64,000 nt of DNA from Candidatus Latescibacterota bacterium (GCA_963667175.2 CAXXXF010000013.1:32001-96000), one strand, 5' to 3'; shown: positions 5,696-53,213, counted from the first letter of the stretch. Made by a program: numbers and translations. Notes: a model not told the origin generated them from the sequence alone.

Positions 5696-5773
5696 GGTTC
5701 CTCCTTTTCGCGGCGTTTGTTTCACTTGCATGACGTTCCAACTGAAGACCAGCGGGCTACCAAGCCTGCCTGG

Positions 5774-6490: not shown

Positions 6491-6682
6491 ATAAAACCTC
6501 CTCAATAATTCAGATTCCTGGTGCAACGTCCGGACGACCCGGCGCCAAATGCCAAACATACTGCGTGTCCCGTCGAACCATCACCTCCTTCGTGCAATTG
6601 TCTGTCGTGTACGCGCAATGGTTCAGGAAAAGGTGAGAACGGATACCGAATTATTCTCGATCGCAGGATTAGTACGAATCGC

Positions 6683-6711
6683 AATTAATGGACAAGGATC
6701 ATGGTTGTCAA
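6683..6711 (-). promoter_or_regulatory. Putative sigma70 promoter for the barrel/TBDR operon
   Basis: Minus strand TTGACA-17 nt-TTAATT in an AT-rich intergenic region. Confidence 0.45.
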
Positions 6712-6939
6712 GTGCTTTTCATCCGGAATTCAAAAGAATCTAATAACCGTCTCCCGAACGCGCCGACCCCGGTGAGGCGAGCGATGCCGCTCATCCTGAA
6801 AGGAAAGGAAACTGTGTTACAGTAATGTCGCGGTTCGGTCACGAACGGTTAACAGTCCGTTGATAAAGTCGCTCTGCAGGCGAGGCCGAAACTTCGTTCC
6901 CTTCGCTTCCCTGAAGAAATCGAGAGCCGGCTGATGGCT

Positions 6940-29105: not shown

Positions 29106-30233
29106 CTACTTCCCGTAGGTGACGGTGGTCTCAAGTCCCAGTTCGAGTTCTTTCAAGAGTTCCTCAAAGATCGGCGGGTCCGAGAGGAGGCCAGTCAGGC
29201 CGCCGTCACATGGAGGTGTCACAAGCCTCTCCAGATCCAACGGGCTATTGTCCCCGAACGGGGCGCCCTGCTTCGACCCTGACCAACTCACCGACCCGAC
29301 CGCCAAGGAGCAATCGGCACGCAGACGGAGGGCGCCCATCGTGTCACCGGTACGGGCGTCGAATGCCGGCCCGTTCGTGAGGAACCGATGGATCTTCCAG
29401 AGGGCCAACGCGAGCAGGAAACGCTGGGCCGCGCAGTTGCCGGAGCCGTCGTCGGAACCCGCCTCGTCGGGCGCCGCGACAAGCGACCGTTCCCGAAGCG
29501 CCAGCACGTCGATCTCGAAGGTGGCCTGAATCGACTCGGAAACGTAGCGCTGCTTGTGAGCAATGCTCTGGCCCTTGTTGCTCTTCTTGGCAGCTGACGA
29601 CTCGGGCTCGATGCCGTCGACCTTGACGAGCCCATAGTGGACCTCGCCGTCCTCTGCGAGAGTCGCCTCCAGCCGCGCGTGGAGCAGGCGGGCAGCACGG
29701 AGGCCGACGGCCTCCCACTGCATGAACTGGAAGCCGTGCAGTATCGCGGCCGGATCCAGCGCGAACACGGCCTGAGTGAGTTTCTCGCGGCCGTCCAGCG
29801 GCCAGGTCTTGCCGTCGAGGCGGAGGTGCTCCTCCAGCTTCTCCTGTAGGGTCGTGCGGTCGTTCTTCGCAGGTTGCGTCCCGTTGACATCGCTCTCGAG
29901 CACGTATGACGAAGCGACCCGGTGGGGTTCGGTGAGGTTCGTCGCCAGAATACGGTTCTTCTTATCCATGACCCGGATGACAGGCAGTTGTGCGGCGAGC
30001 GGTTCCCGCCACACTCCGGGGGACCGCATGCAGACGGCCTCCAGCCGGTTGGCCATGCTCTGCTCGCTCTCAACCAAGCATCGGCGTTTCCCCTTGCCGT
30101 CGGTGTAGACACAGGCTCCAATGTCCGGGAACCCCGTCGGCTGGAAGAACGAGCCGTTCGCAAGGTGAAGCTTGGCCGAGATCAGGACGCGGTCTTGGTC
30201 CAGGAGTACGTCCACGAGGTTGTTGTCAGACAT
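29106..30233 (-). CDS. csb1: Cas7g/Csb1 backbone subunit, module Z
   Basis: FQPTGFPDIG, LVESEQSMANRLE, EPHRVASSY, DPAAILHG, LRLRADC. GGAG SD before ATG 30233. Confidence 0.88.
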   Translation of the reverse strand: MSDNNLVDVLLDQDRVLISAKLHLANGSFFQPTGFPDIGACVYTDGKGKRRCLVESEQSMANRLEAVCMRSPGVWREPLAAQLPVIRVMDKKNRILATNLTEPHRVASSYVLESDVNGTQPAKNDRTTLQEKLEEHLRLDGKTWPLDGREKLTQAVFALDPAAILHGFQFMQWEAVGLRAARLLHARLEATLAEDGEVHYGLVKVDGIEPESSAAKKSNKGQSIAHKQRYVSESIQATFEIDVLALRERSLVAAPDEAGSDDGSGNCAAQRFLLALALWKIHRFLTNGPAFDARTGDTMGALRLRADCSLAVGSVSWSGSKQGAPFGDNSPLDLERLVTPPCDGGLTGLLSDPPIFEELLKELELGLETTVTYGK

Positions 30234-32346
30234 GAGCAGTCTCCATTTCGGGGTTGGTGTCTGATTCGCGAGAAGTGGACGGCACAAGCAGGGTGTCTGC
30301 GAGGCACGCCACACTTTCTTCTGAAACCGGAATGAGCACGGCCGCAGCCATCAGCTCTGCCTGCTTGGATGTGAGACCGACGTCGGGTTGCGCCACGCTC
30401 TTCCCGCTCGGACGAACGTCGTCCGGCCAGTTACCCGGCAAACCCGCTATACGCAGTCGGCGCAGGGCGGCGTCGCAGGCAGCTGCAACCGAGCTCGCGG
30501 TACCGGTGGCGATGCCTCGCGGCACGTCACCGTCCATTGGTCGCCGCTCGCCCGGCGTCTGTCGGGCCGACAGCTCGAGCCAGAGTCGAAGTGCGGCGTA
30601 GACAGGCCCGGCCGGTCGATTCGCAGAAGCCGGCGGCGGCGCATGTCCACTCCCATCCAGTACCAGAAAGGCCAGGAAGTAGCGTTGTAGATCCTTCACC
30701 GGCACGTCACCGCGGAGCAGAGCGACCACGTCGGCGGCGGCGGCGGGACGAGTTCCCCTTGCCGGAAGCACCGGCAGGCTCGCGGTATCGAGCCACCTGC
30801 GCCAGAGCAGCGTCGCAAGCTCTCGGGCCGGATTGCGGCCGGGTTGCGGAACGCGCTGTGCAGGCGGAGGGTCTGGAACGCGGAGTCCGCGTTGGCCGTC
30901 ACTTGTCACGGACATGAGCTGTTCGATGACCGGCATCCGGACCATCTGCCCATTGTCATCCGGCACGGCGGCCCAGCCGAGGGAAGCAAGGGCCCATCCG
31001 AGACGGGCGGCAGGTGAGTCCGCCAGAAGCTCCGACAGCACCCGTCCCCACGCGCGCCCTTCCAGCAGCGGTACCGGGCGGAAAGTCGCTTGAGATCCAG
31101 GTCGCTCCGATACCGTCGTGTACAAGGTGACTTGGAGATTCCACAGCGCCTTCAGCACGTTGACGCGGTTCGCGTCTTCAGGCACGTCGATGGCGGCGTG
31201 GACAGTCTCATCGAAGCGCGTCTTGGCCAGTGCCAGCTTCTCGGAGCTGTCGTCCACCCTGCTCAACCGGAACTTCTCGATCCATCCCGAATCGTCGAGC
31301 GGTGCGAGGAGGAACCGCAAGCTGTCCCGTGCAGCCGACGTCGGCCCGACCTTTGTGGCCCCGCGGGAGACCGCTTGGTTCTGAGGGGCCTTCTGGCCGG
31401 GTTTCCTCGGTTCGAGGGCAAAGCGATGAAACGCATCGAACGCACCCGTGATCGCCCTGCTGGCGACGGCTCGTCGGAAATCGGCTGCACCGGAAGCGAA
31501 GTCCCTCTGACCGACTCGTGCCTGGAAGCCCCGCACTTGCGCCTGGAACTCGGACAGCGTCCTGGGATGGTCGCTGCTCCAAGTCGGAAGGAAGACCTCC
31601 TGCGTCTCTACCATTGAGCCCTGGGCCCGGATGACAGAGCCCGGAAGAACGAATGGAAACGCAGGATAGGAGCGGCGTGAGCCGCGTGGTGACCTGGCGG
31701 CGCCACGCAGGAGCAGCAGGCCTCGCATCGCGAGGATATAGTCCCAGTTGCTGAGTGGCTTCTTGGCCTCATGGATCCAAGCGGCCCCGGTGGCATAGCG
31801 CTTGATACCCTCGGGGAAGAGTAGGCCACCACCTCTCTTCAATCGGCCCTTGGGCACGCGTTCTTCGCTGAAGACCGCAGAATCGATGTCGGCCTCTGGA
31901 GCCTGTTTGGCAGCTTCCCGAAGGGTATTGAATTGGTTCGCTCTCCCGCCAATAGCTTGCCCCCAGCTACCGAGGACGGGATTCGGTTGGGGCAGTTCTC
32001 TGCCGACATAGACGCCGATAGCTTCGGCGTCTACTGCCGCAGCCGGATCGAGCTCCGTCCAAACCGAGGGATCCTTCAGTGGTGGATCACTTCCGTCGGC
32101 CTTTGCGAAGGTTCGCCCAGTTTCATTCGCCCAGTCGACCAGTAAGGCGAGTGCACTCCGAACCTTCTCATGCTGCGCTTCTGAACTTACGTTTTTAAGC
32201 GCTGGAATGTCGGTCTCGAGCGCACCCGCCGATGTCCACCAGAAGCGAGCATCCGACCACGCTACGCCGACGCCTGCCATGACACCATAGCCTTTCAACA
32301 TCGCGCCAAGCGAGGCCGTCGATACGCCCGGGAACTCGACCGTCAT
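30226..32346 (-). CDS. csx17: Divergent Cas8g1/Csx17 large subunit, module Z
   Basis: Sits between cas3 and csb1; 706 aa. WDYILAM.GLLL, AFPF, EVFLPTW, FHRF and ALRRLRIAGL motifs. ATGA overlap with cas3. Confidence 0.8.
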   Translation of the reverse strand: MTVEFPGVSTASLGAMLKGYGVMAGVGVAWSDARFWWTSAGALETDIPALKNVSSEAQHEKVRSALALLVDWANETGRTFAKADGSDPPLKDPSVWTELDPAAAVDAEAIGVYVGRELPQPNPVLGSWGQAIGGRANQFNTLREAAKQAPEADIDSAVFSEERVPKGRLKRGGGLLFPEGIKRYATGAAWIHEAKKPLSNWDYILAMRGLLLLRGAARSPRGSRRSYPAFPFVLPGSVIRAQGSMVETQEVFLPTWSSDHPRTLSEFQAQVRGFQARVGQRDFASGAADFRRAVASRAITGAFDAFHRFALEPRKPGQKAPQNQAVSRGATKVGPTSAARDSLRFLLAPLDDSGWIEKFRLSRVDDSSEKLALAKTRFDETVHAAIDVPEDANRVNVLKALWNLQVTLYTTVSERPGSQATFRPVPLLEGRAWGRVLSELLADSPAARLGWALASLGWAAVPDDNGQMVRMPVIEQLMSVTSDGQRGLRVPDPPPAQRVPQPGRNPARELATLLWRRWLDTASLPVLPARGTRPAAAADVVALLRGDVPVKDLQRYFLAFLVLDGSGHAPPPASANRPAGPVYAALRLWLELSARQTPGERRPMDGDVPRGIATGTASSVAAACDAALRRLRIAGLPGNWPDDVRPSGKSVAQPDVGLTSKQAELMAAAVLIPVSEESVACLADTLLVPSTSRESDTNPEMETAHV

Positions 32347-34943
32347 CGGCTGGCCCTCCAGTCGGCGACGCGGACCAGGGCCTCCAGGTACGCCAGAAAC
32401 TGGGGTCCGTTCTCTTTGAGCAGCTTCACGGCCCGTCCCTGCCAACCGGGGTGGGCGAGCGAAGGGAGCAGCAGGTCGGGGTCGAGTTCGCACGCTTCCT
32501 CACGTGCAACGAATGACATGGCTCGCGCAGGGATGCGGTCGTGGGGCTGGACACCGGCGACGTCGTCCAGCCGGTCATCGTTCCAGGGAGTGGGTGTCAT
32601 CCGCACCTTCCCGTGGTGTGCCATGACGAGCCACGCGACCAGATCGTCGGCGTCCTTCTGGGCAAGGTACGCCAACGCGGACGCCACCTCGTGGCGGAAG
32701 CGCTGGGTGTTGCGCCGCGGTCTGCGATGATCGTTGGACTTTGCATAGTAGACACCGTCTCGGGGGTCCGGGGGCTCATCGTGGCCTGCATCGCGAAGCA
32801 TCTCCTGGAACGGGGAGAAGGGTCCGTCGGCGTCTTCCCGCTCGAGGGCCTTTCCGATATCGTGCCAACGGCCTGCCGTTGCCAGCACGTCCTCCAGATC
32901 CGGAACAAGTGCCCCAGCGAGTTGACGCGCCGCCGACTCCGCCGTGGAGAGGTGCTGCGAAAGTTCCATCCAGCGGCGGGTGTGGCTGTGCGGGTCTTCC
33001 TGGCTGCCGGCCCACCCCTCCGTTCGATCATCGATCCCGCCGACCGTGTCGCCGTCGCTTTGTACCCATGAGCGATGTCCGTCAACGGTAGCCACCCAGC
33101 ACGACGGCCGGCTCTGTTCGGAGCCCACCCAACCGAGTGCATCGTCGTAGCCGCCGAGGGAGACGTCGAGCATCACCGTATCCCCGGGTCGAATGCCCGG
33201 GTCATCCAGCCGGATCTCTCTCCAGGCGCCGCTTTGACGACGAGAACGCTGCAACCCGAGTAACCAGCCCCGGCTGTCAGGACCCAGTTTGCGACCAAGC
33301 TCGCGCAGGGCAGCGATCGAGACCTTGCAGATCTCGTCAGGGTGCGGTGCTGGGGTCTCCTCCGGCTCGACGTTGTCGAGCACCCGCCAGAGCACCGCGA
33401 CATCGAGATCCCTTCGGTCGCCGCGCACGAACCGGGACACGTCGAGATGTCCACCCGACAAGTCGGGGTCCGTGTCGAAGAGGTCGTCGAGGTGGTGTTG
33501 TCGGAGCACGGGTCCTTCGACCGGGACAAGGTGCGGGTCGGCTTGGTCGACTTTCTTGATTGTCGAGATCGATGCGTCTCCACGAAGGCGATCCACTCGA
33601 ATCCATGCAGACTCGAGATCCGCCCACTTGTAAGGCAATGCGGCCGTGCTCCGGGCTTTCTCTTCGGCCTGCTCTCGGTCGGCTTTCTTCTTCGGCCAGC
33701 CTCCGGTCGGCACTTCTACTGGGGCCTCCAGGATATGGACGACGCCCTTTTTCCGTCCACGACGATTGAGTCGCCCGAGGCGCTGCACCAGGGATGACCA
33801 AGGACAGATTTCGCTCACCAGCATGTCCGCGTCGAGGTCGACACCGGCTTCGAGCACCTGAGTGCTGATCACGATTCGTCCCAGGTCCGGAGTGATCGTC
33901 CTGAGCCGGGCCATGGCCGCGGCGCGCTCACGGGGTCGAAAGCGGGAGTGCAAGAGCAGAAGCTCCGGGGGGCTGTCGTCGTGAGCGACAATTGCCTTGA
34001 CCCGCCGGAACAGCTCTTGGGCGCGCACAACACGATTGACCATCACCAGAACGAGTCGTCCGCCGGATGCGTGACACAGAAGTTGCTCGGCCAAAGACGT
34101 GTCCTCGACCGTGACCGCCGGACGTTCCACACGCTTCGATCCGTTGAGCACATCGGACATCGTCTTGCGGTCGGCTTCTCCGAGCCCGAGCACGGTGACG
34201 TCCCGTTTTCCGTGTTCCGGCGTCTGCATCCATAGGGGGGCCTGCTGCGTCCACCGTTGCCCTTCCGCCTGCCTGAGGGTCGCAGTGCCGATCGTCGCAC
34301 TCATCCAGAGACTTTCGCGTGGCAGGTGCTGCGGTGAATGTCGAAACTGATGGAGCTGAACGCTTGTGGTCCGGCCAGCCCCCATGAGTTGCACCTCGTC
34401 GAGGACCCAGAGTGCATCGACGTTCACCTGTCCGAATGCGATCGGCCAGTAGTACGGCTTCATCGCGTACCCGCGGTTCAGGCCGCGCGAGAGGAGCATG
34501 TCCTGGGTCCCCAAGAGCACGGCGTCGCGTTCCGGGTGACCCTCCCATTCCACGGCTTCCTCTCCTCCCATCAGCCTAAATACCGGAACGGCATCGCTGC
34601 ACCAGTTCGGCCGATACGGATCAGCCAGAGGCTGCGGGCGTTGAAGCCAGCCGAGGTTGGCGAACCATTCGATGATGTCGTCGTGCACTTGCTCGACGAG
34701 CGATCGCATCGGCAGGCAGTAGACCAGTCGTCGGGGTGTGCGTTGCCGGATGTCGCGGTCGGGGCACTCTCGCCGGCGCCATGCCCACGAGAGAACGGCC
34801 GCAGCGGTCTTCCCGCACCCTGTGGGCACGGCGAGGATGTCCGGCAGGTACCCGTATTCGGCAAGATTCTCCTGGTACTCATGTGGATCTGTCCGCAGGC
34901 CGGTCGCTGCTACGAAGAAGGAGCTGAAAGGTCGACCACTCAC
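32343..34943 (-). CDS. cas3: Type I-G Cas3 (helicase + C-terminal HD), module Z
   Basis: VPTGCGKT, DEVQ, MSAT, TQVLEAGVDLD, QRLGRLNR; HDIGK, RHE, AHHG, ADWRAS. Confidence 0.95.
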   Translation of the reverse strand: MSGRPFSSFFVAATGLRTDPHEYQENLAEYGYLPDILAVPTGCGKTAAAVLSWAWRRRECPDRDIRQRTPRRLVYCLPMRSLVEQVHDDIIEWFANLGWLQRPQPLADPYRPNWCSDAVPVFRLMGGEEAVEWEGHPERDAVLLGTQDMLLSRGLNRGYAMKPYYWPIAFGQVNVDALWVLDEVQLMGAGRTTSVQLHQFRHSPQHLPRESLWMSATIGTATLRQAEGQRWTQQAPLWMQTPEHGKRDVTVLGLGEADRKTMSDVLNGSKRVERPAVTVEDTSLAEQLLCHASGGRLVLVMVNRVVRAQELFRRVKAIVAHDDSPPELLLLHSRFRPRERAAAMARLRTITPDLGRIVISTQVLEAGVDLDADMLVSEICPWSSLVQRLGRLNRRGRKKGVVHILEAPVEVPTGGWPKKKADREQAEEKARSTAALPYKWADLESAWIRVDRLRGDASISTIKKVDQADPHLVPVEGPVLRQHHLDDLFDTDPDLSGGHLDVSRFVRGDRRDLDVAVLWRVLDNVEPEETPAPHPDEICKVSIAALRELGRKLGPDSRGWLLGLQRSRRQSGAWREIRLDDPGIRPGDTVMLDVSLGGYDDALGWVGSEQSRPSCWVATVDGHRSWVQSDGDTVGGIDDRTEGWAGSQEDPHSHTRRWMELSQHLSTAESAARQLAGALVPDLEDVLATAGRWHDIGKALEREDADGPFSPFQEMLRDAGHDEPPDPRDGVYYAKSNDHRRPRRNTQRFRHEVASALAYLAQKDADDLVAWLVMAHHGKVRMTPTPWNDDRLDDVAGVQPHDRIPARAMSFVAREEACELDPDLLLPSLAHPGWQGRAVKLLKENGPQFLAYLEALVRVADWRASR

Positions 34944-35033
34944 TTCGCAAACCCCGTTTCAGGTGATGGTTTTCTATTGGCCTCCAGTTGATGGGCAAGC
35001 GGCTCTTTCCCGTTTCGCCAAGTTGACTGAAAC

Positions 35034-37394
35034 TCAGTCACTTTCTTGTCCTCGCTCATCCATCGGACGGCACAGTCCATATCCCCGGAATCGTCCTGCC
35101 CCCAGAAGCACGGGACCTCGCGCCGGCTCGTCGAATACGATCACCGCGTGGTTGTGGCTCTGGCGTCCGCCGTGGTTCTTGCGCGCCATTTGCGGGAACT
35201 CCCTCGAATGAGGAACCCCTTCGACTAAGGAAACCGGGTGTAACAAAACCTCGCGCGGGCGCGGCAGACCGATGTGCCCGCACATGTCCTTCACGCTTTC
35301 GGCCGCCCGTTTCCACTTGTCCTTGCCATCGAAATGCCGGTTCAGGACCACCGGGGTCACGGTGGCCCAAATGCGGGATTCCCGTGTCCAGGTATTCGGA
35401 TTAAGGTTTTTCGGCGGGCGCTCGCGGGTTTCCAGTTCAATAGCGCACTCCAACCACGCGCCATCAAACAACCGATGTTCGCACGGCAGGCCGGTAGTGG
35501 AATCGTGAAGAAAACGGGCAAGGCATTTTCCGGCATCCTGATGATTCAGGTCCGCCGGCAGGGCTATGGCCAAACCCATGACCCGGCCATCTGCATATTC
35601 TGCACCGACGAATGGGAGAGGGGTCAGTGCCAGATGGGGATCAGCGGTAGGTCCGCCCTCCGGTCGATGGCCGCTGAACCACTCCGGCGGGGGTTGTTCG
35701 GGACACTCTTTCATCAATAAACCGCGCAGGGCCGCCGTGAGCTTGAGCGTCGCCGGTAGAGACACGCGCTTGCCTTTGATACCGAGGACAATGAGCTGAG
35801 GGTCGAAAACCGAGGCGGGGATTTCGGGGGCCTCGTCTTTCGGGGGTCTATCGTATCCCTGCCAACGGCCCGGTACCGGGCTCAGACTCACGGGTTTTCC
35901 GTTGGGAAACCGGTCTTCCGAACGCGTTTTCAACTCCTTGATGTATCGTCTCTGTTCGCGAGGATTTCGCCCGATGCACGGTCCACTTCCGCCTTGCTTT
36001 GCCGCAGCAAGTCGATTTCGGATGGTGTCAACATCCGGGGAGCGGGCGAGGTACCGAGCCTCTGACTGAGTAAGGCAATCGAAGGTGTGGCCGAAGTGGG
36101 CCTTCCACCACTTTTCGAAGTCTGATCCGTGCTCTTGTCGGAGTTCATGCAATTGCTCCTGTGAAGGGTTCAATTTGACAGAGTAGGGTTTGCCGGTCAG
36201 CGCAATGGCGCCAACGACTTTTCCGCCCTGCTTTTCTATCCAGCCGCGCAGATTCGCCAAAGTACCGCCCTGACCGATGAAGTCGTCCACCATCACGTAC
36301 TCTCGCCCTGCTTCGACAGGCCCATCGAAGCAAGCCTGACGCGCGAGCCGGCCATAGCCGTCGGCGCCCGTATGGGAGACGATATTCGTCTGTACGACAG
36401 CCGTCTCGCGGGGGATGCCGAGCCGCTCGTGCAGCAGTCTTGTCAAGGCAGCCGGAATGGCATTGAGGCCCTGGCTTTCCCAAGCATGTGCGCTGACCAA
36501 CACGGGATCGCCACTTTCACTTGCTTCGGAAGCCAGCAACTGCACCGCACGGATTCCACTCTCGTCGACCAGGCTGTCGACGAGGCGCGTCGCGGCTTCG
36601 GCGTCGCGCGCCGATTTTGCGCCAGGATATTCGGGGTGCTGTTTGACTTCGGATTCGCCGGCCAGTAGCACCACGTTCGCGAATGCCTTCCAAGGCGCCC
36701 TTGGCGGTGGCTTCATCTCCTTGAGGTCCGCGTCAGCTTGCTTAATCTCACTTTGAAGATCGTGGTAGGCGATTGTCGCTGCACGGTTCATGCGCGTTTC
36801 CAACATCTGCAGGCGCCCGGGGTTCGTTACGCGGAGTCGCTGACGGGCGACGCCCGTCGCTGGAATCCACGCAGGCGGCGGCGGCTTGGTCTCCAGCCAC
36901 ATTTGTACAAAAGAAGCCGAATGTCCCACGTGGGTAACTTTGGCGCCCAGCCGTTCCAAGGTGGCGCGATGTGTACCCAACTCGGCCTCCGGCCAAATCA
37001 GATACACCTTCGGGTTGTGAGGGATGGCAACCGGGAAACCACGGGGCTGGCGCGACCGATACTCCGGAAGCTGGGCCAGTCCGGCATCCTTCAGTTTGTT
37101 CAGATTTCCGATGGCAGGCAGCCGACGCTTTATACTCGCGTCGTTGACGGGCACATAGCTGACAACAGTAGCGCGACTGTGGGCATCCGACGCGGCAATC
37201 GCAGGTGGCGGCAAGGCTTCAAGCCAACGCAGTGCGTCGCCTTCGGCGGGGTCTTCGCCCGTCTCAAACCAGGCTGCTGCCAACGCCATGAATACCCGAT
37301 CGGGATGCGGCGGCCATTCGGCCTGTTCCTTTCGGGCCCCGTCCGCCGCTGCCATGGACCATCCATTCAGATAATGGATGCCAAGAGAGAACAT
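35034..37394 (-). CDS. csb2: Csb2 (Cas5/Cas6 fusion) with an internal phosphoribosyltransferase domain, module X
   Basis: N-terminal EWPPHPDRVFMAL..VPVND..VGHSAS; C-terminal SGH..PHLA..LPFVG..ADG, WATVTP, GPVLLGAGRFRGYGLCRP. Insert of ~260 aa (from aa ~227) carrying VMVDDFIGQGGTL. Confidence 0.9.
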   Translation of the reverse strand: MFSLGIHYLNGWSMAAADGARKEQAEWPPHPDRVFMALAAAWFETGEDPAEGDALRWLEALPPPAIAASDAHSRATVVSYVPVNDASIKRRLPAIGNLNKLKDAGLAQLPEYRSRQPRGFPVAIPHNPKVYLIWPEAELGTHRATLERLGAKVTHVGHSASFVQMWLETKPPPPAWIPATGVARQRLRVTNPGRLQMLETRMNRAATIAYHDLQSEIKQADADLKEMKPPPRAPWKAFANVVLLAGESEVKQHPEYPGAKSARDAEAATRLVDSLVDESGIRAVQLLASEASESGDPVLVSAHAWESQGLNAIPAALTRLLHERLGIPRETAVVQTNIVSHTGADGYGRLARQACFDGPVEAGREYVMVDDFIGQGGTLANLRGWIEKQGGKVVGAIALTGKPYSVKLNPSQEQLHELRQEHGSDFEKWWKAHFGHTFDCLTQSEARYLARSPDVDTIRNRLAAAKQGGSGPCIGRNPREQRRYIKELKTRSEDRFPNGKPVSLSPVPGRWQGYDRPPKDEAPEIPASVFDPQLIVLGIKGKRVSLPATLKLTAALRGLLMKECPEQPPPEWFSGHRPEGGPTADPHLALTPLPFVGAEYADGRVMGLAIALPADLNHQDAGKCLARFLHDSTTGLPCEHRLFDGAWLECAIELETRERPPKNLNPNTWTRESRIWATVTPVVLNRHFDGKDKWKRAAESVKDMCGHIGLPRPREVLLHPVSLVEGVPHSREFPQMARKNHGGRQSHNHAVIVFDEPARGPVLLGAGRFRGYGLCRPMDERGQESD
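35930..36148 (-). CDS. Nested out-of-frame 72-aa protein ('LTPxEIDLLR' family) inside the csb2 PRTase insert
   Basis: AGGAG SD 7 nt before ATG. Clear homology to ORFs 50398-50640, 51069-51377 and 52723-53004. Confidence 0.65.
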   Translation of the reverse strand: MNSDKSTDQTSKSGGRPTSATPSIALLSQRLGTSPAPRMLTPSEIDLLRQSKAEVDRASGEILANRDDTSRS

Positions 37395-38668
37395 CAGCCG
37401 TCCCCTTCTCCCGAGGCGCTGGCCAATTCCTGGCTCCGCCGGACCAGTTCGACGAGGTCGGGCGATGGGGTCAGTTCAATTTCGCCCTCCCAGGGAAGGC
37501 CGACATCTCTGGCGGCCGCAGTCGCCTCGTTCAACAATTCAAGCGCGTCTTCGGGATCAAGTTCAAATTTCCGAGGAGATTCTCCGGGACGATCGAGCAT
37601 CTCCCACACAGGTTCTTGTTCAGCGAACAACTGGCAACGAGAGCGAAGGTCCGTATCGACTCTCGCCAAACTTCCGGCGGCCAGCCCCAGCGCGGCCAAC
37701 GCGGTGCGTGCGGCCAGATCAGTGTCGCGGTCAGAGTCCGCGGCGCCGTTGAGCGGAAAGCGGAGGCGACGTAGGACACTTAGTGACATTACCGTGGTCT
37801 GTACGGCTCTGGAGATTGTAAAACCGCCGATAATCCGCGGTACTCTGCGTTCCTGTCCATTTGAGTCAATAATAGTATCATAGACGATTTGTCCTCTTGG
37901 GTCTTTCGCATAAGCGTAATCGGGAGTGACATTTCCGTGGTTCGCTTCAGATGGCCTTCCTGTCTTGAGCTTCTTCCCGTCAGTCTTATTCAACGTCCAG
38001 TGGGACGCATCGTCGCTTTCAGATTTGCGCTCATATAGCGTGGCCGCATCGCGCATGATCTCCGCAGGATCGATTCGGCTGGACGTTTTCTTTCCGGCTA
38101 TCGCGTCATATCCTGCAATTTCCGAAACCACCGCACGCTGGAATTTACACCCCAGACCGCCACGAGGACCAGTCGAGTCCCACAGACCAAATATCAGTGC
38201 GGTCGGACACAAGCCAAATAGGCCGGTGGCATTCCGCACCTCCGCGGTGTCGAGTATTCGTCCCTTCTCCGACTTACGAAAAATCGTCCCGTTCAGAAGA
38301 CTGTCGCGGAATAGCGCATCCGCGACGCGATGGGGCGCCTCCAGGCTGGACACTGAGAACTCTTTGGGTAGTTCCTGATCGAAACGTGTTACCAGCAGAG
38401 GGAGCTGTACCGTTCCGGCACGGTGTGCCTCCAGCAGCGCCAACTCCATGCGGTTGGCCTGCGACTGCACCGAATCCAGGAGAACACATTGTCGAGTCTC
38501 CCTTGTCTTCGGGTCGATGCGCTCTTCGGTGGCGTATTTACCCCCTTCGTACGTCGGAGGAAACACTTTGTCGCCGGGGCCTCCTGCGGGCTGATAGTCG
38601 GTCACGCACCGAAACGCTGCGGCCGTCCCGGCGACCGCGGATTGCAAAGTCTGCAAATCAATCTTCAT
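37394..38668 (-). CDS. csb1: Cas7g/Csb1 backbone subunit, module X
   Basis: QPAGGPGDKVFPPTY, LLDSVQSQANRME, EAPHRVADA, PTALIFGLWDS, SSRIDP, NHGNV, DLRSRC. Confidence 0.93.
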   Translation of the reverse strand: MKIDLQTLQSAVAGTAAAFRCVTDYQPAGGPGDKVFPPTYEGGKYATEERIDPKTRETRQCVLLDSVQSQANRMELALLEAHRAGTVQLPLLVTRFDQELPKEFSVSSLEAPHRVADALFRDSLLNGTIFRKSEKGRILDTAEVRNATGLFGLCPTALIFGLWDSTGPRGGLGCKFQRAVVSEIAGYDAIAGKKTSSRIDPAEIMRDAATLYERKSESDDASHWTLNKTDGKKLKTGRPSEANHGNVTPDYAYAKDPRGQIVYDTIIDSNGQERRVPRIIGGFTISRAVQTTVMSLSVLRRLRFPLNGAADSDRDTDLAARTALAALGLAAGSLARVDTDLRSRCQLFAEQEPVWEMLDRPGESPRKFELDPEDALELLNEATAAARDVGLPWEGEIELTPSPDLVELVRRSQELASASGEGDG

Positions 38669-38715: not shown

Positions 38716-38853
38716 TCAGTTCTCAACTATAACATCGCCATTGACCAATTTCCCCGCAAGGACTTCGCTCACGATCTCGGTAGTTTCCCGTGCGGCCTTC
38801 CGCAGACGTTTTGGGTCGGCTATGTCGTAGGAGACGACGTAGGAATTGCGCAT
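38716..38853 (-). pseudogene. cas2: cas2 fragment (first 19 aa) fused to the tail of an LTPxEI-family gene
   Basis: [19 protein letters not shown] is identical to Cas2, followed by AARETTEIVSEVLA matching 52723-53004 (AAKETAEIVSEVLA). Confidence 0.75.
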
Positions 38854-39956
38854 CCGGACAACCTTTCTGTCAGGCTCTGCTTCACCTCGCGGTTCGGATA
38901 TCCCAGATGGTACAGGGTCCTGACGCCCAGTTTTCTTTCCCCGGTAATCGTCAGGCAGCCGGTCTGGAACAGCAGAGCTTCGGTACCGATGTGGTCCACG
39001 TCAATGGTCGACAGCAAATCGCTGCTACCCAACATGTCGTCAAGTGCCAGAGAACTCACCTGGCGTTTGAACAGGGTTTCGACCAGGAACGAGGGCGTAC
39101 CGGTCTCGAACCAGTAGGCCTTGAACATGCGGCTGTCGAAGAGCAGTAGAATGTCGAAGGGGTTGTACACGTTCTCCTCGCCCAGCCAGTTGTAGCCGTT
39201 GTACCAGTCGCGGATCTCGTCCCGGTCGAGACCGGGCAACTCCGGCGCAAATATGGTGTCGATATCTTCGTCGGTGTAGCCGCAGACGGCGGAATAGCGC
39301 CTGTCCAGCGTGATGTCGATCAGGTTGTTGAGCCCGGAGAACGGTCCGGCCAGGGGAAACTTGTGGACCCCGGTGAGAAGGCTGAACCGGACGTCGGCGT
39401 CGCTGGACTTGATCGCCGCGTAGAAGCCGAACAGGTAGTCGCGGATGGCGCGGGCGGTTTCGGGGTTGTCGAGGTTGTCCAGGATCGGCTTTTCATATTC
39501 GTCCACGAGGACTGCCACCCGCCGGCCGGTACGCTCATGCAACTCCTCAAGCAGGCGCCCGAAGCGGAAGGACGGATCGTTGTCGCGAGGGGTTATCTCC
39601 GCCTGGTCTTCCAGGACCTGCAATTGCGCCGCCAGTTCCGTCCGCATGTCCTCGGGCCCCCGGTAGTTGCCGTAGTCGCCGCCGCTGAAGTCGAGGCGCA
39701 CCACCGGATGACGGACCGACCAGTCCCAGTGATCGTGGATGTGCAACCCCTCAAAGAGCGGTTCGTTGCCCTCGAACAGCTCCTTGCAGGTGTCGAGGAA
39801 GAGGCTCTTGCCGAAGCGCCGCGGGCGGGAGAGGAAGTAGTGACTGCCGCTGTCGAGCAGTCGCCGTACGTACCGGGTCTTGTCGACGTAGTAGCAGTCT
39901 TCCTCGCGGATCTCGCGAAAGGTCTGGATGCCATTGGGGAGTTTGCGTCTGGTCAT
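38820..39956 (-). CDS. C-terminally truncated AAA-ATPase-like protein (paralogue of 19828-20931)
   Basis: [27 protein letters not shown]. Ends shortly after PNREV; no nuclease domain. Confidence 0.7.
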   Translation of the reverse strand: MTRRKLPNGIQTFREIREEDCYYVDKTRYVRRLLDSGSHYFLSRPRRFGKSLFLDTCKELFEGNEPLFEGLHIHDHWDWSVRHPVVRLDFSGGDYGNYRGPEDMRTELAAQLQVLEDQAEITPRDNDPSFRFGRLLEELHERTGRRVAVLVDEYEKPILDNLDNPETARAIRDYLFGFYAAIKSSDADVRFSLLTGVHKFPLAGPFSGLNNLIDITLDRRYSAVCGYTDEDIDTIFAPELPGLDRDEIRDWYNGYNWLGEENVYNPFDILLLFDSRMFKAYWFETGTPSFLVETLFKRQVSSLALDDMLGSSDLLSTIDVDHIGTEALLFQTGCLTITGERKLGVRTLYHLGYPNREVKQSLTERLSGCAIPTSSPTT

Positions 39957-39982
39957 GGGAGGTCTCCGGCGCGGGGGCGCGC

Positions 39983-41533
39983 TCAGGCGCGCTCCACCTC
40001 GAAAGCGGCCAGGTTGCGGGCGTCCCTGCTGAACTCGACGGCAATCAGGTAGACCGGCTGGCCGAGGCCGCGGTACTTGTCGGCGTAGCGCCTCTCCTTC
40101 AACTGGGCCATGGCGGCGCCCTCCGGCGCCAGCTCGACCACCTTGAACTCGAAGAGATAGACGTTGTCGTTGAAGCGGACCGCCATGTCGAGGCGGCCGT
40201 GGCTGCTGCTGTCCTCCACGGTGACGTCCGATTCCAGGGCAGCGAAGTACGAGTAGAACACGCTGGCGTAGTAGCCCTCGTAGTTGGCGATGTCGTTGCT
40301 GGTGTACCACTCGTAGGGGATACTGGCGAAGAAAGCACGGAACAGGGTCTCGAGCCCGGCGAAGTCGTTGGCCAGCAGTAGGTCGTAGAGCCGGGCCCTG
40401 TGCTCGGCCTGCTGCGGCGGGCTTCCCGTCAAGGAACTCAGAAGGCTTCGGTTCAGGCTCTTCCGAACCTCCCGGTTCGGGTAGCCGAGACGATAGAACA
40501 TCTCCCCGCCACGCGGCTCGGCGCGGGCGATGGTGAGATAGCCGGTCTGGAACAGCAGCGCCTCGGTGGCGATGTCCTCCACGTCGAACTTCGACAACAG
40601 ATCGTCGGTGCCCACCATGTCTTCCAGGGACAGCGAGCGGACGCGGCGCTGGAACAGGGTTTCGACCAGGAACGAGGGCGTACCGGTCTCGAACCAGTAG
40701 GCCTTGAACATGCGGCTGTCGAAGAGCAGTAGAATGTCGAAGGGGTTGTAGACGTTCTCCTCGCCCAGCCAGTTGTAGCCGTTGTACCAGTCGCGGATCT
40801 CGTCCCGGTCGAGGCCGGGCAACTCCGGCGTGAATACGGTGTCGATATCTTCGTCGGTGTAGCCGCAAAGGGCGGAATAGCGCGGGTCCAGCGTGATGTC
40901 CTTGAGGTTGTTTAGGCCGGAGAACAGGCTCACCCTGGAAAACTTGCTCACGCCGGTGAGGAAGCTGAAACGGATGTCGGCGTCGCTGTCCTTGATCGTC
41001 GCGTAGAGGCCGCGCAGGAAGTCGCGGTTGGCCAGGGCGACCTCCGGCGTCTCAAGGGCATCCAGGATCGGCTTGTCGTACTCGTCGATCAACACCGCGG
41101 CGCGCTGACCGGTGCGCTCGTGCAACTCCTTCGTCAAGCGGCGGAAGCGCGCCGAGGCGGTGTCGTCATCGCGCGGAGTGACTTCCGCTTCCTCCTCCAG
41201 GGCGGTCAGTTGAGTACCCACTTCCTTCCGTAAGTCGTCCGGCTCCAGGTAGGTACCGCTGCTGAAGCTCAGGCGCAGGACGGGGTGACGAACGGACCAG
41301 TCCCAGTGATCGTGGATGTCCAGCCCCGTGAACAGGGGCTCGTTGCCCTCGAACAGCTCCTTGCACGTGTCGAGAAAGAGGCTCTTGCCAAAGCGCCTCG
41401 GACGCGACAGGAAATAGTGCTTGCCCTCGTCGAGAGGCCGACGGATGTAGCCGGTCTTGTCGACGTAGTAGCAGTCCTCCTCGCGGATCTCGCGGAAGGT
41501 CTGAATGCCTATGGGGAGTCTGCGTCGGGTCAT
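39983..41533 (-). CDS. AAA-ATPase-like + PD-(D/E)XK nuclease protein (copy B)
   Basis: 516 aa, highly similar to 20958-22508. Confidence 0.9.
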   Translation of the reverse strand: MTRRRLPIGIQTFREIREEDCYYVDKTGYIRRPLDEGKHYFLSRPRRFGKSLFLDTCKELFEGNEPLFTGLDIHDHWDWSVRHPVLRLSFSSGTYLEPDDLRKEVGTQLTALEEEAEVTPRDDDTASARFRRLTKELHERTGQRAAVLIDEYDKPILDALETPEVALANRDFLRGLYATIKDSDADIRFSFLTGVSKFSRVSLFSGLNNLKDITLDPRYSALCGYTDEDIDTVFTPELPGLDRDEIRDWYNGYNWLGEENVYNPFDILLLFDSRMFKAYWFETGTPSFLVETLFQRRVRSLSLEDMVGTDDLLSKFDVEDIATEALLFQTGYLTIARAEPRGGEMFYRLGYPNREVRKSLNRSLLSSLTGSPPQQAEHRARLYDLLLANDFAGLETLFRAFFASIPYEWYTSNDIANYEGYYASVFYSYFAALESDVTVEDSSSHGRLDMAVRFNDNVYLFEFKVVELAPEGAAMAQLKERRYADKYRGLGQPVYLIAVEFSRDARNLAAFEVERA

Positions 41534-42863: not shown

Positions 42864-49501
<6,638 letters not shown>

Positions 49502-49600: not shown

Positions 49601-49792
49601 TTACCTGCGAAGCTTGAAATTCTTACTTTGCGGGGGTTCGTTGTCGATCTCAATGCCTTGGTCTCTCAATCGGTCAATGCCGCCGCGTACCTGTTTGCAG
49701 TCTAAGTTCACGGCTGTCGCCATTTCCAGCACGGAAGCGCCGTTTTTCCGGCGCTTCAGATATTCGTACACGCGAGATTGAATAGACTCCAT
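49601..49792 (-). CDS. Small winged-HTH protein, candidate cas regulator
   Basis: 63 aa: VYEYLK...SVLEMATAVNLDCKQVRGGIDRLRDQGIEI. GGGAG SD. Confidence 0.6.
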   Translation of the reverse strand: MESIQSRVYEYLKRRKNGASVLEMATAVNLDCKQVRGGIDRLRDQGIEIDNEPPQSKNFKLRR

Positions 49793-50093: not shown

Positions 50094-50321
50094 CTATCTT
50101 CTTCGTTCTTTCTTTTCTGTACCAACTCGATTTCGCATGGCGTCAAATTCGGTGGAGCGGGTGAGTCGTTCCCGAATCCAGGCCTCGTCTACCGGCTCGC
50201 CCTCCATCGCCATCGAGTTCGCCACGTGACGGGGAATCGCCTTCAGATGCCGACACCGGCGCTCCTCCGCCGGGAGGTTGCGCCATTGTTCGATGGCCTC
50301 CCTCCAATGCATGTCGGGCAT
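50094..50321 (-). CDS. Small protein with VbhA/Fic-antitoxin-like SxxxEG motif
   Basis: AGGAGG SD before MPDMHW; VANSMAMEGEPV matches (S/T)xxxE(G/N). Confidence 0.5.
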   Translation of the reverse strand: MPDMHWREAIEQWRNLPAEERRCRHLKAIPRHVANSMAMEGEPVDEAWIRERLTRSTEFDAMRNRVGTEKKERRR

Positions 50322-50397
50322 CGACGTCCTCCTGTTCATGTCTAAACGTCGATAATATCCGCGTAACATTCGCAATAGATTCGGGTCTATTTTCAGC

Positions 50398-50640
50398 CTA
50401 TCCACTGGTTTCATCCTGATCACCAACCGCTCTCTTCCTCGCAGAGACTTCGCGCAAGACCTGGGCCATCTCCTTCTTGCTCCTCCGCAGCAGGTCGATC
50501 TCGCACGGCGTCAGATTCCTGTGAGAGGGCGAGACGCCCACTATCTGATTGAGTTTGGCCGCCGAAGGGGTGGTTCGAGCAGGCTTGTTCCGGCTCCTTG
50601 AACGCTGCTCCGCGTCGTTGTCTTTGGCCATTTTCTTCAT
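50398..50640 (-). CDS. LTPxEIDLLR-family small protein, free-standing copy 1
   Basis: PARTTPSAAKLNQIVGVSPSHRNLTPCEIDLLRRSKKE. Confidence 0.6.
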   Translation of the reverse strand: MKKMAKDNDAEQRSRSRNKPARTTPSAAKLNQIVGVSPSHRNLTPCEIDLLRRSKKEMAQVLREVSARKRAVGDQDETSG

Positions 50641-50874: not shown

Positions 50875-51072
50875 TTAGAGTTTGAATAGAATCAGCGTGC
50901 CAAGCGTGATAAACATGGTAAACTGAATGCCGATCATCCAGCGGAAACCCTGATCGACGCGAATTTCGAGGGCAGCGATGCGCTGGCTAAGCTGCTCAAC
51001 GGTACCCTCCAGGCGCGCAAGGCGTGCCTCGAAATCGGCGCTGGCGGGTGCTTCGGGCGTTGCGGTGTTCAT
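50875..51072 (-). CDS. Coiled-coil + C-terminal TM small protein
   Basis: Heptad FEARLARLEGTVEQL plus hydrophobic tail; paralogue at 53028-53213. Confidence 0.65.
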   Translation of the reverse strand: MNTATPEAPASADFEARLARLEGTVEQLSQRIAALEIRVDQGFRWMIGIQFTMFITLGTLILFKL

Positions 51073-51377
51073 GATGGTTTCCCTTCTTTGTGTGTTGGTT
51101 GCGACCCCTGGCCGGATTCTTTGCGCTGTTCGTCTGCTTCCATCGTTGCCTGCGTTTCATCCTGATCTCGAGCCGCTTTCTTCCTCGCAGAGACTTCGCG
51201 CAAGACCTGGGCCATCTCCTTCTTGCTTTTCCGCAGCAGGTCGATCTCGTACGGTGTCAGATTCCGGGGCGCGGACGAGACGCCTACTATCTGATTGAGC
51301 TTGGCGGCTGACGGGGTGGTTCGAGCAGGCCTGTCCCCACGCTCTGAGGGCTGCTGCACTTCGTTGTGCTCAGCCAT
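51069..51377 (-). CDS. LTPxEIDLLR-family small protein, free-standing copy 2
   Basis: RPARTTPSAAKLNQIVGVSSAPRNLTPYEIDLLRKSKKE; ATGA overlap with the next gene. Confidence 0.6.
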   Translation of the reverse strand: MAEHNEVQQPSERGDRPARTTPSAAKLNQIVGVSSAPRNLTPYEIDLLRKSKKEMAQVLREVSARKKAARDQDETQATMEADEQRKESGQGSQPTHKEGKPS

Positions 51378-51713: not shown

Positions 51714-51935
51714 TCAAAGACCTGCAATGGGTATGGACGTTGTTGCTTCAGCCTCTCCGTGGACCATCAGTCGCACCTTCTCGGTCGTCTCGCGACGAAA
51801 CGCCTGTTCGCCGCATCGGACGCATACCACAGCCGGAATGCTCCCGACCAGGGCATAACGCCCATCAACGCGAAACACCTCGTCGACCAACTCCTCACGG
51901 CTTTCCTGGGAATGGCAGACCGGGCAAGTAAACAT
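51714..51935 (-). CDS. YgiT/MqsA-type zinc-finger protein (orphan antitoxin-like)
   Basis: MFTCPVCH...IPAVVCVRCGEQAF with AAGGAGG SD. Last codons possibly frameshifted. Confidence 0.7.
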   Translation of the reverse strand: MFTCPVCHSQESREELVDEVFRVDGRYALVGSIPAVVCVRCGEQAFRRETTEKVRLMVHGEAEATTSIPIAGL

Positions 51936-52029
51936 GCTCACCTCCTTACTGGAGTATTCGATCCATACATAGTGGCGACCCTCCAGATCGGCAACCTCAA
52001 GAGGCACGTTCACGAAATCACTCCAGGAA

Positions 52030-52374
52030 TCAGACAGAACGAGCAATACGTTCGATCGCTCTGGCCAACTCAGGGAGGTCGCGTTCGACGACGCTCCAAA
52101 CCGCATCAAGATCAACCTGTAAATAACCATGCACAAGCACGTTGCGAAACCCTGCAATGGCACGCCAGGGAACGTCTCTCTCGGTCTCTTTTACTGCGTC
52201 GCTCAGGCGCTGCGTTGACTCCGAGAGCGTCTGCAGATTTCGCACGACGGCATCCTGCACCATGCGTGAACCGTAGAACGAAGCTCGCCTGCTGCCGGTG
52301 TATTCCCGAATGCGTTCAATGCACTCGCGTATGTGTTCCAGCAATACTCTATCCGACTGCGCATCGGGTTTCAT
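52030..52374 (-). CDS. hepT: HepT-like (DUF86) HEPN ribonuclease toxin
   Basis: QDAVVRNLQTLSES, PWRAIAGFRNVLVHGY (RX4HXY). Confidence 0.85.
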   Translation of the reverse strand: MKPDAQSDRVLLEHIRECIERIREYTGSRRASFYGSRMVQDAVVRNLQTLSESTQRLSDAVKETERDVPWRAIAGFRNVLVHGYLQVDLDAVWSVVERDLPELARAIERIARSV

Positions 52375-52655
52375 AACGGCTGCGCCTCGTTCAGAACGCG
52401 CTCGCGGAGGGCCGGATGAAGACTCTTTTCAGTGACGACTTCTACGCGGCGTTGCAGAAGGTCCCGCACGTCCATCAACAGCGCGCCGAGCGCGAGGCCC
52501 GTTCTATCGGGCGGGAGCGACACCAGCAGATCGACGTCACCGGAATCATCGGCATCGCCCCTCGCCATAGACCCGAACACACGTACGTCGGTAATACCGT
52601 GCCGTTCAGCAAGGGCGAGAATCCCGGCGCGGTGTTGTTCGATGATTGAGTGCAT
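52371..52655 (-). CDS. mntA: MntA-like minimal nucleotidyltransferase antitoxin
   Basis: VRVFGSMARGDADDSGDVDLLV (GSX10DXD); ATGA overlap with hepT. Confidence 0.85.
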   Translation of the reverse strand: MHSIIEQHRAGILALAERHGITDVRVFGSMARGDADDSGDVDLLVSLPPDRTGLALGALLMDVRDLLQRRVEVVTEKSLHPALRERVLNEAQPL

Positions 52656-52722
52656 AACTACCGTATCCCTACTCGCCGTCCTTCCGGCGCTTGATGAGCA
52701 GTGTACGCTGATGGTCCGAACC

Positions 52723-53004
52723 TTAGCGGGAATCCTCGCGCTGTTCGTCTGCTTCCATCGTTGCTCGCGTTTCATCCTGATCTCGAGCCGCCTCTTTTTC
52801 CTTCGCCAGGACTTCGCTCACGATCTCCGCAGTTTCCTTCGCGGCCTTCCGAAGCAGCTCGATCTCGTACGGCGTCAGATTCCGGCAGGCGGGCGAGTCG
52901 CCCAATATCTGTTTGAGCTTGGCCGCCGATGGGGTGGTTCGAGCAGGCCTGTCCCCACGCTCTGAACGCTGCTCCGCGTCGTTGCCCTTAGCCATTTTCT
53001 TCAT
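52723..53004 (-). CDS. LTPxEIDLLR-family small protein, free-standing copy 3
   Basis: RPARTTPSAAKLKQILGDSPACRNLTPYEIELLRKAAKETAEIVSEVLA. Confidence 0.6.
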   Translation of the reverse strand: MKKMAKGNDAEQRSERGDRPARTTPSAAKLKQILGDSPACRNLTPYEIELLRKAAKETAEIVSEVLAKEKEAARDQDETRATMEADEQREDSR

Positions 53005-53027: not shown

Positions 53028-53213
53028 TTAGAGTTTGAAGAGAATGAGCGTGCCAAGCGTGATGAAGCTGGTAAAGTGGAGGCCGATAAGCCAGCGTTGC
53101 CCGCGCTCCAGGTTGGCAAGGCGCTGGTTCATCTGCTCTACCGTGCCCTCGAGGCGTGCAAGGCGTGCCTCGAAGTCGGCGCTGGCGGGTGCTTCGGGCG
53201 TCGCGGTGTTCAT
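53028..53213 (-). CDS. Coiled-coil + TM small protein (paralogue of 50875-51072)
   Basis: First 27 aa identical to the paralogue; same GTLILFKL end. Confidence 0.65.
   Translation of the reverse strand: MNTATPEAPASADFEARLARLEGTVEQMNQRLANLERGQRWLIGLHFTSFITLGTLILFKL

Follow-up and report, generated by a model that had tools for sequence, protein, structure and literature searches.

Phosphoribosyltransferase (PRTase) domains of a distinct group occur in MuF fusions, in polyvalent proteins and as solo genes, and their role has been called 'enigmatic' (Iyer et al. 2017, PMC5512222; this and the other papers are cited for the parts of them covered here). The same clade includes KfrC of the IncU plasmid RA3 and of IncP-1 plasmids, which is encoded in a plasmid stability operon and has a C-terminal domain of its own (PMC8124265). 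Overproduction of RA3 KfrC inhibits growth in a host-dependent manner, the substitution DDT141-143AAA abolishes this inhibition, and no stable clone was obtained of a fragment spanning residues 1-249 (PMC8124265). We analysed a 64,000-nucleotide (nt) stretch of DNA from a Candidatus Latescibacterota bacterium (GCA_963667175.2, CAXXXF010000013.1:32001-96000; the whole stretch is called the window) in which a PRTase of this clade is found not in a plasmid stability operon but inside csb2, a cas gene of a type I-G CRISPR locus that encodes a Cas5-Cas6 fusion (PMC9638904). Within the PRTase-coding part of csb2, on the same strand and in the +1 frame, lies a second open reading frame (ORF) of 72 codons, which, judging by the pattern of constraint in homologous loci, is very probably a genuine protein-coding gene; the plasmid kfrC genes that we examined carry it as well.

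In MuF polymorphic toxins a variable C-terminal effector is accompanied by a small cognate immunity protein encoded adjacent to it (Jamet et al. 2017, PMC5576092), whereas the candidate immunity gene considered here lies inside the effector coding sequence. A term search of the covered text of that paper found no PRTase among the MuF effectors ('phosphoribosyl' and 'PRTase', 0 occurrences each). In the defence toxin-antitoxin system ShosTA, the toxin ShosT acts via its PRTase activity (PMC11961720). The ShosT structures 8zvc and 8zvd matched a model of the csb2 insert (Foldseek, E = 2e-4) with low template modelling (TM) scores of 0.32-0.36, and PADLOC gave no match of the insert or of the small proteins to ShosT, ShosA or any other of its families; the insert is not a member of the ShosT family. 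ShosA is a separate, larger protein and not a nested helix of 60-70 amino acids (aa).

Nested out-of-frame genes on the same strand with a small product are familiar from comS in srfA of Bacillus subtilis and Rz1 in Rz of phage lambda. Those belong to narrow lineages. The nested PRTase ORF, by contrast, accompanies a whole clade of enzymes in broad-host-range plasmids, temperate phages and the CRISPR-Cas loci of many phyla, and binding of its product to the host protein is predicted. Several type I systems produce Cas11, a Cascade subunit, from a translation start inside cas8 and in the same frame. The ORF described here is likewise hidden inside a cas gene, but it is out of frame, it arrived as part of a foreign PRTase module and it is also present where cas genes are absent. 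To our knowledge, few long overlaps between genes on the same strand have been clearly supported by evolutionary evidence in bacteria.

No published report of a nested gene in PRTases of this clade was found in the literature searched, and the supplementary alignments of Iyer et al. might bear on this point. The covered text of PMC8124265 mentions no nested ORF (a term search gave 'overlapping', 'reading frame' and 'frameshift' 0 times each); 'overlapping' likewise occurs 0 times in that of PMC5512222, whose covered passages include no Csb2 fusion, and the viral loci reported below are of the kind described there. With the nested gene, both the PRTase domain whose role Iyer et al. termed enigmatic and the toxicity of KfrC, so far unexplained, become open to concrete tests. 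Constructs expressing PRTases of this clade also carry the second coding sequence; its product may modulate the enzyme and may alter the reading of published experiments.

Selection on the nested frame within csb2

The host gene, at 35034..37394 on the minus strand, encodes 786 aa and matches the NCBIfam model TIGR02165 (E = 4e-87) and Pfam Cas_GSU0054. Both halves of its product align at 33-36% identity with the plain Csb2 encoded elsewhere in the window (46554..48248), with ~320 extra residues between them; the family model, the two halves and the csb1 and cas3 neighbours in related loci place the gene in type I-G csb2. Relative to plain Csb2, the insert comprises codons 205-525 (35820..36782, minus strand; protein P0001), residues ~205-525 being unmatched in BLASTP. 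The PRTase domain proper, delimited by phmmer, alignment, the PHROGs family phrog_22413 and an AF2 model, occupies P0001 residues ~25-266 (35985..36710, minus strand) and includes the DD motif with the phosphoribosyl pyrophosphate (PRPP) loop and three C-terminal helices.

The nested gene (35930..36148, minus strand; 72 aa plus stop) corresponds to csb2 codons 416-488. Its ATG is at 36148..36146 and its TGA at 35932..35930, so that the whole ORF lies within csb2, where it overlaps the last ~55 PRTase codons and the start of the following linker. A Shine-Dalgarno sequence, AGGAG (36156..36160, minus strand), precedes the ATG with a 7-nt spacer. This arrangement had been described in an earlier note on this DNA, made from the sequence alone, and was borne out; the note's statement that the insert ends about where the nested ORF stops holds only approximately, since the insert runs to about codon 525, ~37 codons beyond the nested stop at codon 488.

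We compared 18 full-length Csb2-PRTase genes from several phyla, with pairwise aa identities of 0.63-0.91 (median 0.69). The nested ATG was present in every one of them and was preceded in each by a Shine-Dalgarno sequence (GGAG in 16, AAGGA in 2). It derives from CAT-GAA, and was preserved as GAT-GAA in one genome in which the His is replaced by Asp. Solo PRTase genes also possessed an ATG and a Shine-Dalgarno sequence for the nested ORF.

Synonymous sites were frozen across the overlap. Among the 18 genes, where residues were identical the codons were identical too in a fraction of 0.795 within codons 416-488, against 0.517 elsewhere (68 and 651 columns, respectively; Mann-Whitney p = 7e-18). 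The best 73-codon segment began at codon 412-416, which is the nested ORF; non-overlapping segments of this length had a mean of 0.515, a standard deviation of 0.025 and a maximum of 0.567, and the nested ORF stood more than 10 standard deviations above any other. Constraint rose from codon ~410, at the Shine-Dalgarno site, and fell after codon ~488, at the nested stop. The PRPP-loop region, which is the most conserved segment of the protein, showed no synonymous excess (0.49-0.55), and amino-acid conservation therefore does not explain the constraint over the nested ORF. The corresponding values in 41 phage loci were 0.706 in the overlap and 0.510 outside it (p = 1e-8). The Leu of an invariant Leu-Thr pair was encoded by CTT or CTC and never by CTG in all 18 Csb2-PRTase genes and in 55 of 55 viral loci; CTG followed by ACx would create a TGA in the +1 frame. 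The two frames were conserved in complementary fashion, the PRTase frame being the more conserved over LT.SEARYL (0.87 against 0.42) and the small frame over the PRTase tail (0.45 against 0.32).

Stop codons were counted over 86 distinct loci, which group into 21 clusters at 70% nt identity, 28 at 80% and 54 at 90% and which include AT-rich Acinetobacter and Moraxella sequences. The ORF was open in all 86. Not one of the 5341 +1-frame codons within the overlap was a stop, compared with 2257 of 72244 (3.12 per 100) outside it and with 5.0 per 100 in the +2 frame within it. RNAalifold analysis of the 18 sequences over 231 nt gave -15.6 kcal/mol with compensatory change in 1 of 32 pairs; no convincing conserved RNA fold was found, and the frozen synonymous sites are thus left without an RNA explanation. 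No slippery heptamer was seen by eye in the upstream sequences, for which no formal search was made. The proposal that selection acts on the small protein was strongly supported by these observations, namely synonymous freezing confined to the ORF (a check named in the earlier note), conserved start signals and a frame that is open in every homologue examined.

Distribution of the nested frame and free-standing copies

In an exhaustive phmmer search the insert matched 2058 cluster representatives, and for 401 of these E was <= 1e-30; it matched phrog_22413 (function unknown) with E = 8e-58. Solo PRTases of 235-250 aa aligned from query residue ~25 and ended at ~262-268. In an alignment of 16 sequences, D166, D167, G172, G173 and T174 of the catalytic DD motif and PRPP loop were invariant, as were E223, W225, F234, L237, T238, E241, A242 and L245; the last eight lie in the stretch over the nested ORF, which typifies the clade more than any other part (ELRxKHG..E.WW..FGH.FD.LT.SEARYL...D.IR.R). 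The AF2 model of the insert had a predicted local distance difference test score (pLDDT) of 87.8, with three helices over the nested ORF. It resembled APRT, ComF, OPRT and ShosT in Foldseek (E = 3e-5 to 2e-4), although the TM-scores were low (0.23-0.39), and the Pfam model Pribosyltran scored 17.5 bits, under its cut-off of 26.3. By sequence the insert belongs to this mobile-element PRTase clade, C-terminal helices included, and its catalytic motif and fold agree with the assignment. A weak NCBIfam match of P0001 residues 128-217 to the XopC/Rsp1239 type III effector family (E = 6e-4, far below cut-off) probably reflects a shared PRTase-like segment.

On these matches the clade comprises KfrC of IncP-1 and IncU plasmids, MuF and polyvalent phage proteins, solo genes and Csb2-PRTase fusions, and the frame encoding Csb2 and the PRTase appears as the old, widely conserved one, which the small frame is not. 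Capture of a free small gene into csb2, where it would be read as a linker in a foreign frame, was considered and rejected because the Csb2/PRTase frame is widely conserved in the phmmer search and the alignment.

A scan of species-representative genomes yielded 33 PRTase loci, some of them solo PRTases; the csb2::PRTase loci came from metagenome-assembled genomes (MAGs) labelled Latescibacterota, Nitrospirales, Binatia, Acidobacteriota, Terriglobia, Dehalococcoidia, Alphaproteobacteria and Gammaproteobacteria. The +1 frame was open from the ATG for 56-72 codons in each of the 32 genome loci that cover the region. Viral contigs contained 72 loci at 33-55% identity, and the ORF was open in all 55 distinct loci with the anchor motif, the small-frame products sharing the motif (R)(M)L-T-(P/D)-S-E-I-E-S-L. 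The insert also matched 168 plasmid records in tblastn, with genes annotated as kfrC or 'phosphoribosyltransferase' at 36-39% identity. Three plasmid loci were examined, an IncP-1-type kfrC, an IncU kfrC-like gene of 355 aa and an AT-rich Acinetobacter solo gene, and all carried the +1 ORF with LTPSEIESLRQ or LTKSEIESLRQ. In several solo genes the nested ORF extended 10-25 codons beyond the PRTase stop. The nested ORF thus appears, from these alignments, to be an old and general feature throughout the PRTase clade, not one special to the csb2 insert, and one DNA stretch would therefore always deliver two proteins. The suggestion that PRTase and nested gene move as one unit is strongly supported by this distribution, the ORF being carried by solo PRTases, plasmid KfrC and phage MuF fusions alike.

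An annotated phage collection contained only three records with a PRTase of the clade. In Moraxella phage Mcat8 the nested ORF continues ~100 nt past the PRTase stop. The Mcat8 PRTase (L143, 1469..3311) makes up the C-terminal domain of a 'coat protein' of 579 aa encoded straight after the portal gene, in the position of a MuF-like minor head protein, and GenBank annotates a hypothetical coding sequence of 39 aa in the nested frame, overlapping the end of the 'coat protein' gene.

Three stand-alone homologues of the nested core, listed in the earlier note, are present in the window on the minus strand. They encode 102 aa (51069..51377), 80 aa (50398..50640, with the ATG that aligns with the other copies at 50631) and 93 aa (52723..53004, with the aligned ATG at 52995). 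A short stretch, SPAPPNLTPCEIELVQKRKNEED (50096..50164, minus strand), is a possible remnant of a further copy, its similarity being weak only (E = 0.86; E = 0.002 in a small local search). Over an ungapped core of 198 nt the nested copy differed from the three ORFs (in the order 51069, 50398, 52723) at 76, 75 and 84 positions, or ~58-62% nt identity; 31, 30 and 30 of 66 residues were identical in the small frame, and 23, 24 and 19 of 65 in the Csb2 frame. Searching the whole genome with the 102-aa copy recovered the nested ORF and the three free ORFs (E = 8e-61 to 2e-11) together with the weak remnant; all lie on this contig.

The PRTase frame of the free copies is still recognisable and has decayed. 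In the same order, it matched P0001 residues 200-277 (32% identity, one TGA), 212-277 (36% identity) and 205-279 (32% identity, one TAA). In a set of 10 related free copies, stops interrupted the PRTase frame in 7 (2 of the 3 in the window), and the invariant WW and LT.SEARYL residues were gone; the copy in genome G057 retained 47% identity (E = 4e-18) with two TGA stops. The small frame was open in all 10, with a common start, and its ratio of non-synonymous to synonymous differences (pN/pS; 45 pairs) was 0.58, compared with 0.83 and 1.12 in the other frames, a moderate effect. Because the PRTase frame resembles the tail of the enzyme yet has decayed, while the small frame is open and constrained, we interpret the free copies as 3' ends of PRTase genes in which only the nested gene was kept. 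The earlier note had reported such decay for one copy, and it extends across the set. Free copies would thus illustrate how the life cycle of such an overlapping gene continues, namely by its survival as an independent gene once the host frame has decayed. They start with MNS.. or MA.., as in the cas-associated clade, while the phage and plasmid ATG comes from K-H-G codons instead; this suggests that the free copies descend from the cas-linked module.

Sister genome G009 contained at least nine copies of the small ORF within an island of toxin-antitoxin genes, and a PRTase of the mobile-element clade was not found in that genome. Copies in G009 lay upstream of cas3 and of other genes, and in G057 a lone small ORF lay 13 nt upstream of cas3. 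A Binatia MAG had a solo PRTase with its nested ORF, followed by a cas3 beginning 2 nt after the small ORF stop. In G015 (L024, 2120..4921, minus strand) the first ~44 residues of the small ORF were fused in frame to a 5'-truncated cas3 that is ~60 N-terminal residues short compared with that of G057, which looks like a deletion joining the two; the helicase of this fusion may be inactive. The arrangements in the Binatia MAG, G057 and G015 represent intermediates. In G009 (L022, 9635..10022) a truncated small-ORF copy containing a stop comes after a 60-aa ORF that matches the N-terminal part of Cas3 from G057, another sign that the small-ORF sequence could be a recombination hot spot at the 5' ends of cas3.

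A profile search with the small ORF gave 507 called proteins among 3471 candidates, all of them unnamed or 'hypothetical'. The reading of the small ORF as a tiny family, which a single-sequence search with the 102-aa copy had given (18 proteins among 20 candidates), was dropped because of this result. Comparison of the small proteins with Pfam, PHROGs, NCBIfam and PADLOC gave nothing significant, the only match being that of one phage copy to phrog_10234 (E = 0.006).

Predicted complex and role of the small protein

The small protein has a Ser/Thr-rich N-terminus and a long helix with the motif L-T-P-S-E-I-x-x-L-R-Q; L40 and E44 are invariant. AF2 modelling of the 72-aa product from a 44-sequence alignment gave a disordered N-terminus and helices at residues 24-31 and 42-71, with pLDDT ~95 at residues 41-60. 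Modelled together with the PRTase domain, a check that had been proposed for this pair, it formed a predicted complex with an ipSAE interface score of 0.90 in three of three runs, compared with 0.00 for the best-scoring of three controls; the runs agreed in at least 86% of their contacts, and the partner pLDDT was at least 70. Of 80 solved complexes, 58 attained the mark used for this score, as did 2 of 110 mismatched pairs; this calibration is only rough because our own alignments were used for the prediction. No similar solved complex was found by sequence, a search of PDB with a profile of the small-protein alignment giving chance-level matches (E >= 0.2), and recall of a known structure is therefore unlikely. 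The predicted interface involves insert residues 58-69, 97-116, 125-136 and 148-154 and small-protein residues 20-66. These insert residues flank two conserved loops, E..G.NAIP and the segment before an invariant HTG, which we take to be of the kind that forms the PRPP site in type I PRTases. The model would thus have the small protein occlude or regulate the active site of the PRTase.

The 355-aa IncU protein has DDT at residues 141-143, as does RA3 KfrC, and its nested ORF spans residues 198 or 207 to 260. The result obtained with KfrC fragment 1-249 is ambiguous, as this fragment loses the last 11 of 62 nested codons in addition to KfrC's own C-terminal domain.

Taken together, we favour an explanation in which the nested product would be made from its own Shine-Dalgarno sequence and ATG, would bind the PRTase core beside the PRPP-site loops and would serve as the cognate regulator of the enzyme, most likely as an inhibitor resembling an antitoxin or immunity protein; the free-standing ORFs (three in the window, at least nine in G009) would be orphan relics of PRTase 3' ends. 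Binding of the PRTase seems likely from the models. Inhibition, or an antitoxin role, is the best single reading, ahead of that of a positive partner, and we hold it tentatively, at somewhat less than an even chance; on the explanation as a whole our judgement is evenly balanced. A toxin-antitoxin relationship is plausible because of the predicted binding, the dependence of KfrC toxicity on the catalytic site and the orphan arrays in G009, a genome without a detected clade PRTase. Orphan immunity genes are a familiar theme.

Several observations weigh against this explanation. An open frame at a single locus is not rare, its chance under synonymous-codon shuffling being 0.149 per locus (median) with 1.22 stops expected per locus; 15.7% of stop-free +1 runs elsewhere in the same genes are at least 56 codons long, and the lineages, many as they are, are related and not independent. 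The pN/pS values between nested and free copies (0.82, 0.81 and 0.99 in the three frames) do not discriminate. In the MuF phage group the nested ATG is conserved and no motif resembling a Shine-Dalgarno sequence precedes it. Binding is a model prediction on our own alignments. Free copies persist without a PRTase, which fits orphan immunity and a PRTase-independent role equally well. Full-length kfrC clones, which contain the nested ORF, are still growth-inhibitory when over-expressed (PMC8124265), and this speaks against simple neutralisation.

Co-inheritance in all 86 distinct loci and a high-confidence predicted interface would fit any tight partner, and the toxicity of full-length kfrC with the ORF included is also consistent with a real product that binds the PRTase in a positive capacity, as an obligate subunit, activator, specificity factor or folding or assembly chaperone. 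We consider such a partner unlikely, as an activator is hard to square with orphan arrays in G009 or upstream of the Csb2 locus that lacks the insert, an arrangement typical of orphan immunity genes. The persistence of free copies without a PRTase, their placement immediately upstream of the G057 cas3 and, in G009, upstream of cas3 as well as other genes, and the gene order at the Binatia locus point instead towards a real gene whose role is unrelated to the PRTase, be it a regulator or accessory of the cas operon or of Cas3, or a DNA- or RNA-binding helix that hitch-hikes with the enzyme. This is quite improbable in our view: conservation of the ORF is just as strong in MuF proteins of phages and in plasmid kfrC, where cas genes are absent, and the predicted interface is with the PRTase itself, the controls scoring nil.

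Synonymous constraint alone is silent on what is constrained, and this, with the missing Shine-Dalgarno sequence of the MuF group, would accord with there being no separate protein, the region acting as an RNA or DNA element or as the site of a programmed frameshift by which the PRTase would acquire a different C-terminus. Such accounts are very improbable, given that stops are missing from the +1 frame only and not from the +2 frame, that the ATG and Shine-Dalgarno sequence are conserved elsewhere and the ATG outlasts the change of His to Asp, that the ORF runs past the PRTase stop in several solo genes, that the free copies hold the small frame and that the RNA consensus is weak; a frameshifted product would moreover forfeit three confidently folded, conserved helices. 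The shuffling result and the long stop-free runs elsewhere are what can be said for a chance open frame in GC-rich DNA, with the free copies as meaningless pseudogene debris. That reading is strongly disfavoured, since the frame is open at every locus, AT-rich ones included, and the constraint is local to the ORF.

The inhibitor reading can be taken further, to a view that we regard as rather doubtful, in which PRTase and nested gene form a self-contained toxin-antitoxin (effector-immunity) cassette in a single DNA stretch, with a latent Cascade toxin and spare antitoxins. Sharing of DNA would make the partners inseparable by recombination, and the module could for that reason be inserted intact into kfrC operons, polyvalent proteins and the Cas5-Cas6 linker of Csb2. 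Type I-G Cascade would carry a latent toxic enzyme restrained by the nested protein, and the orphan arrays beside cas loci would be spare antitoxins that blunt the PRTases of invading phages and plasmids. If so, the free copies would document an overprinted gene that outlives the gene in which it was born or into which it had grown. In broader terms, some type I-G effector complexes may be carriers of an enzyme whose activity is regulated.

The cas loci and the genes around the free copies

The window contains two tandem type I-G cas loci (30226..38668 and 42864..49501, minus strand), each in the order csb1, csb2, cas3. The PRTase insert is present only in the first of the two csb2 genes, and no other Csb2-PRTase fusion was found among 60 relatives searched. 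In 19 related loci csb1 is followed by csb2::PRTase, with a cas3-like match next in 9 of them; such a match was also present in two further csb2::PRTase loci whose sequence ends before csb1. The free copies lie upstream of the second, plain cas locus, beyond a winged-helix-like ORF of 63 aa (49601..49792) that has a weak WYL-type match.

Large, closely similar ORFs border the cas loci and the island of small ORFs (38820..41533 and 53227..54222, minus strand) and have kin in sister genomes (L022, 2840..4393; L024, 5013..6620); all four seem to resemble the AAA-ATPase/PD-(D/E)XK type. An ORF of 110-120 aa downstream of a small-ORF copy, found in the window (50094..50426, minus strand) and in L022 (9061..9423), ends in ..EFDA(M/V)R(N/D).., like the PRTase-frame tail of another copy, and the remnant at 50096..50164 lies inside it; this third gene may use the old PRTase frame as its C-terminus.

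Repeated ORFs of 61-77 aa alternate with the small-ORF copies in the window (50875..51072 and 53028..53213, minus strand) and in L022 (4983..5180, 5533..5766 and 6673..6885). Their products are coiled-coil-like at the N-terminus and hydrophobic at the C-terminus (..LGTLILFKL), with only a weak match to DUF7310 in Pfam, and the two kinds of ORF look as if they belonged to one amplified cassette. Also among the small-ORF copies are a HepT/MNT toxin-antitoxin pair (52030..52374 and 52371..52775, minus strand) and an MqsA-like zinc-finger ORF (51714..52163, minus strand), and both recur in the G009 island.

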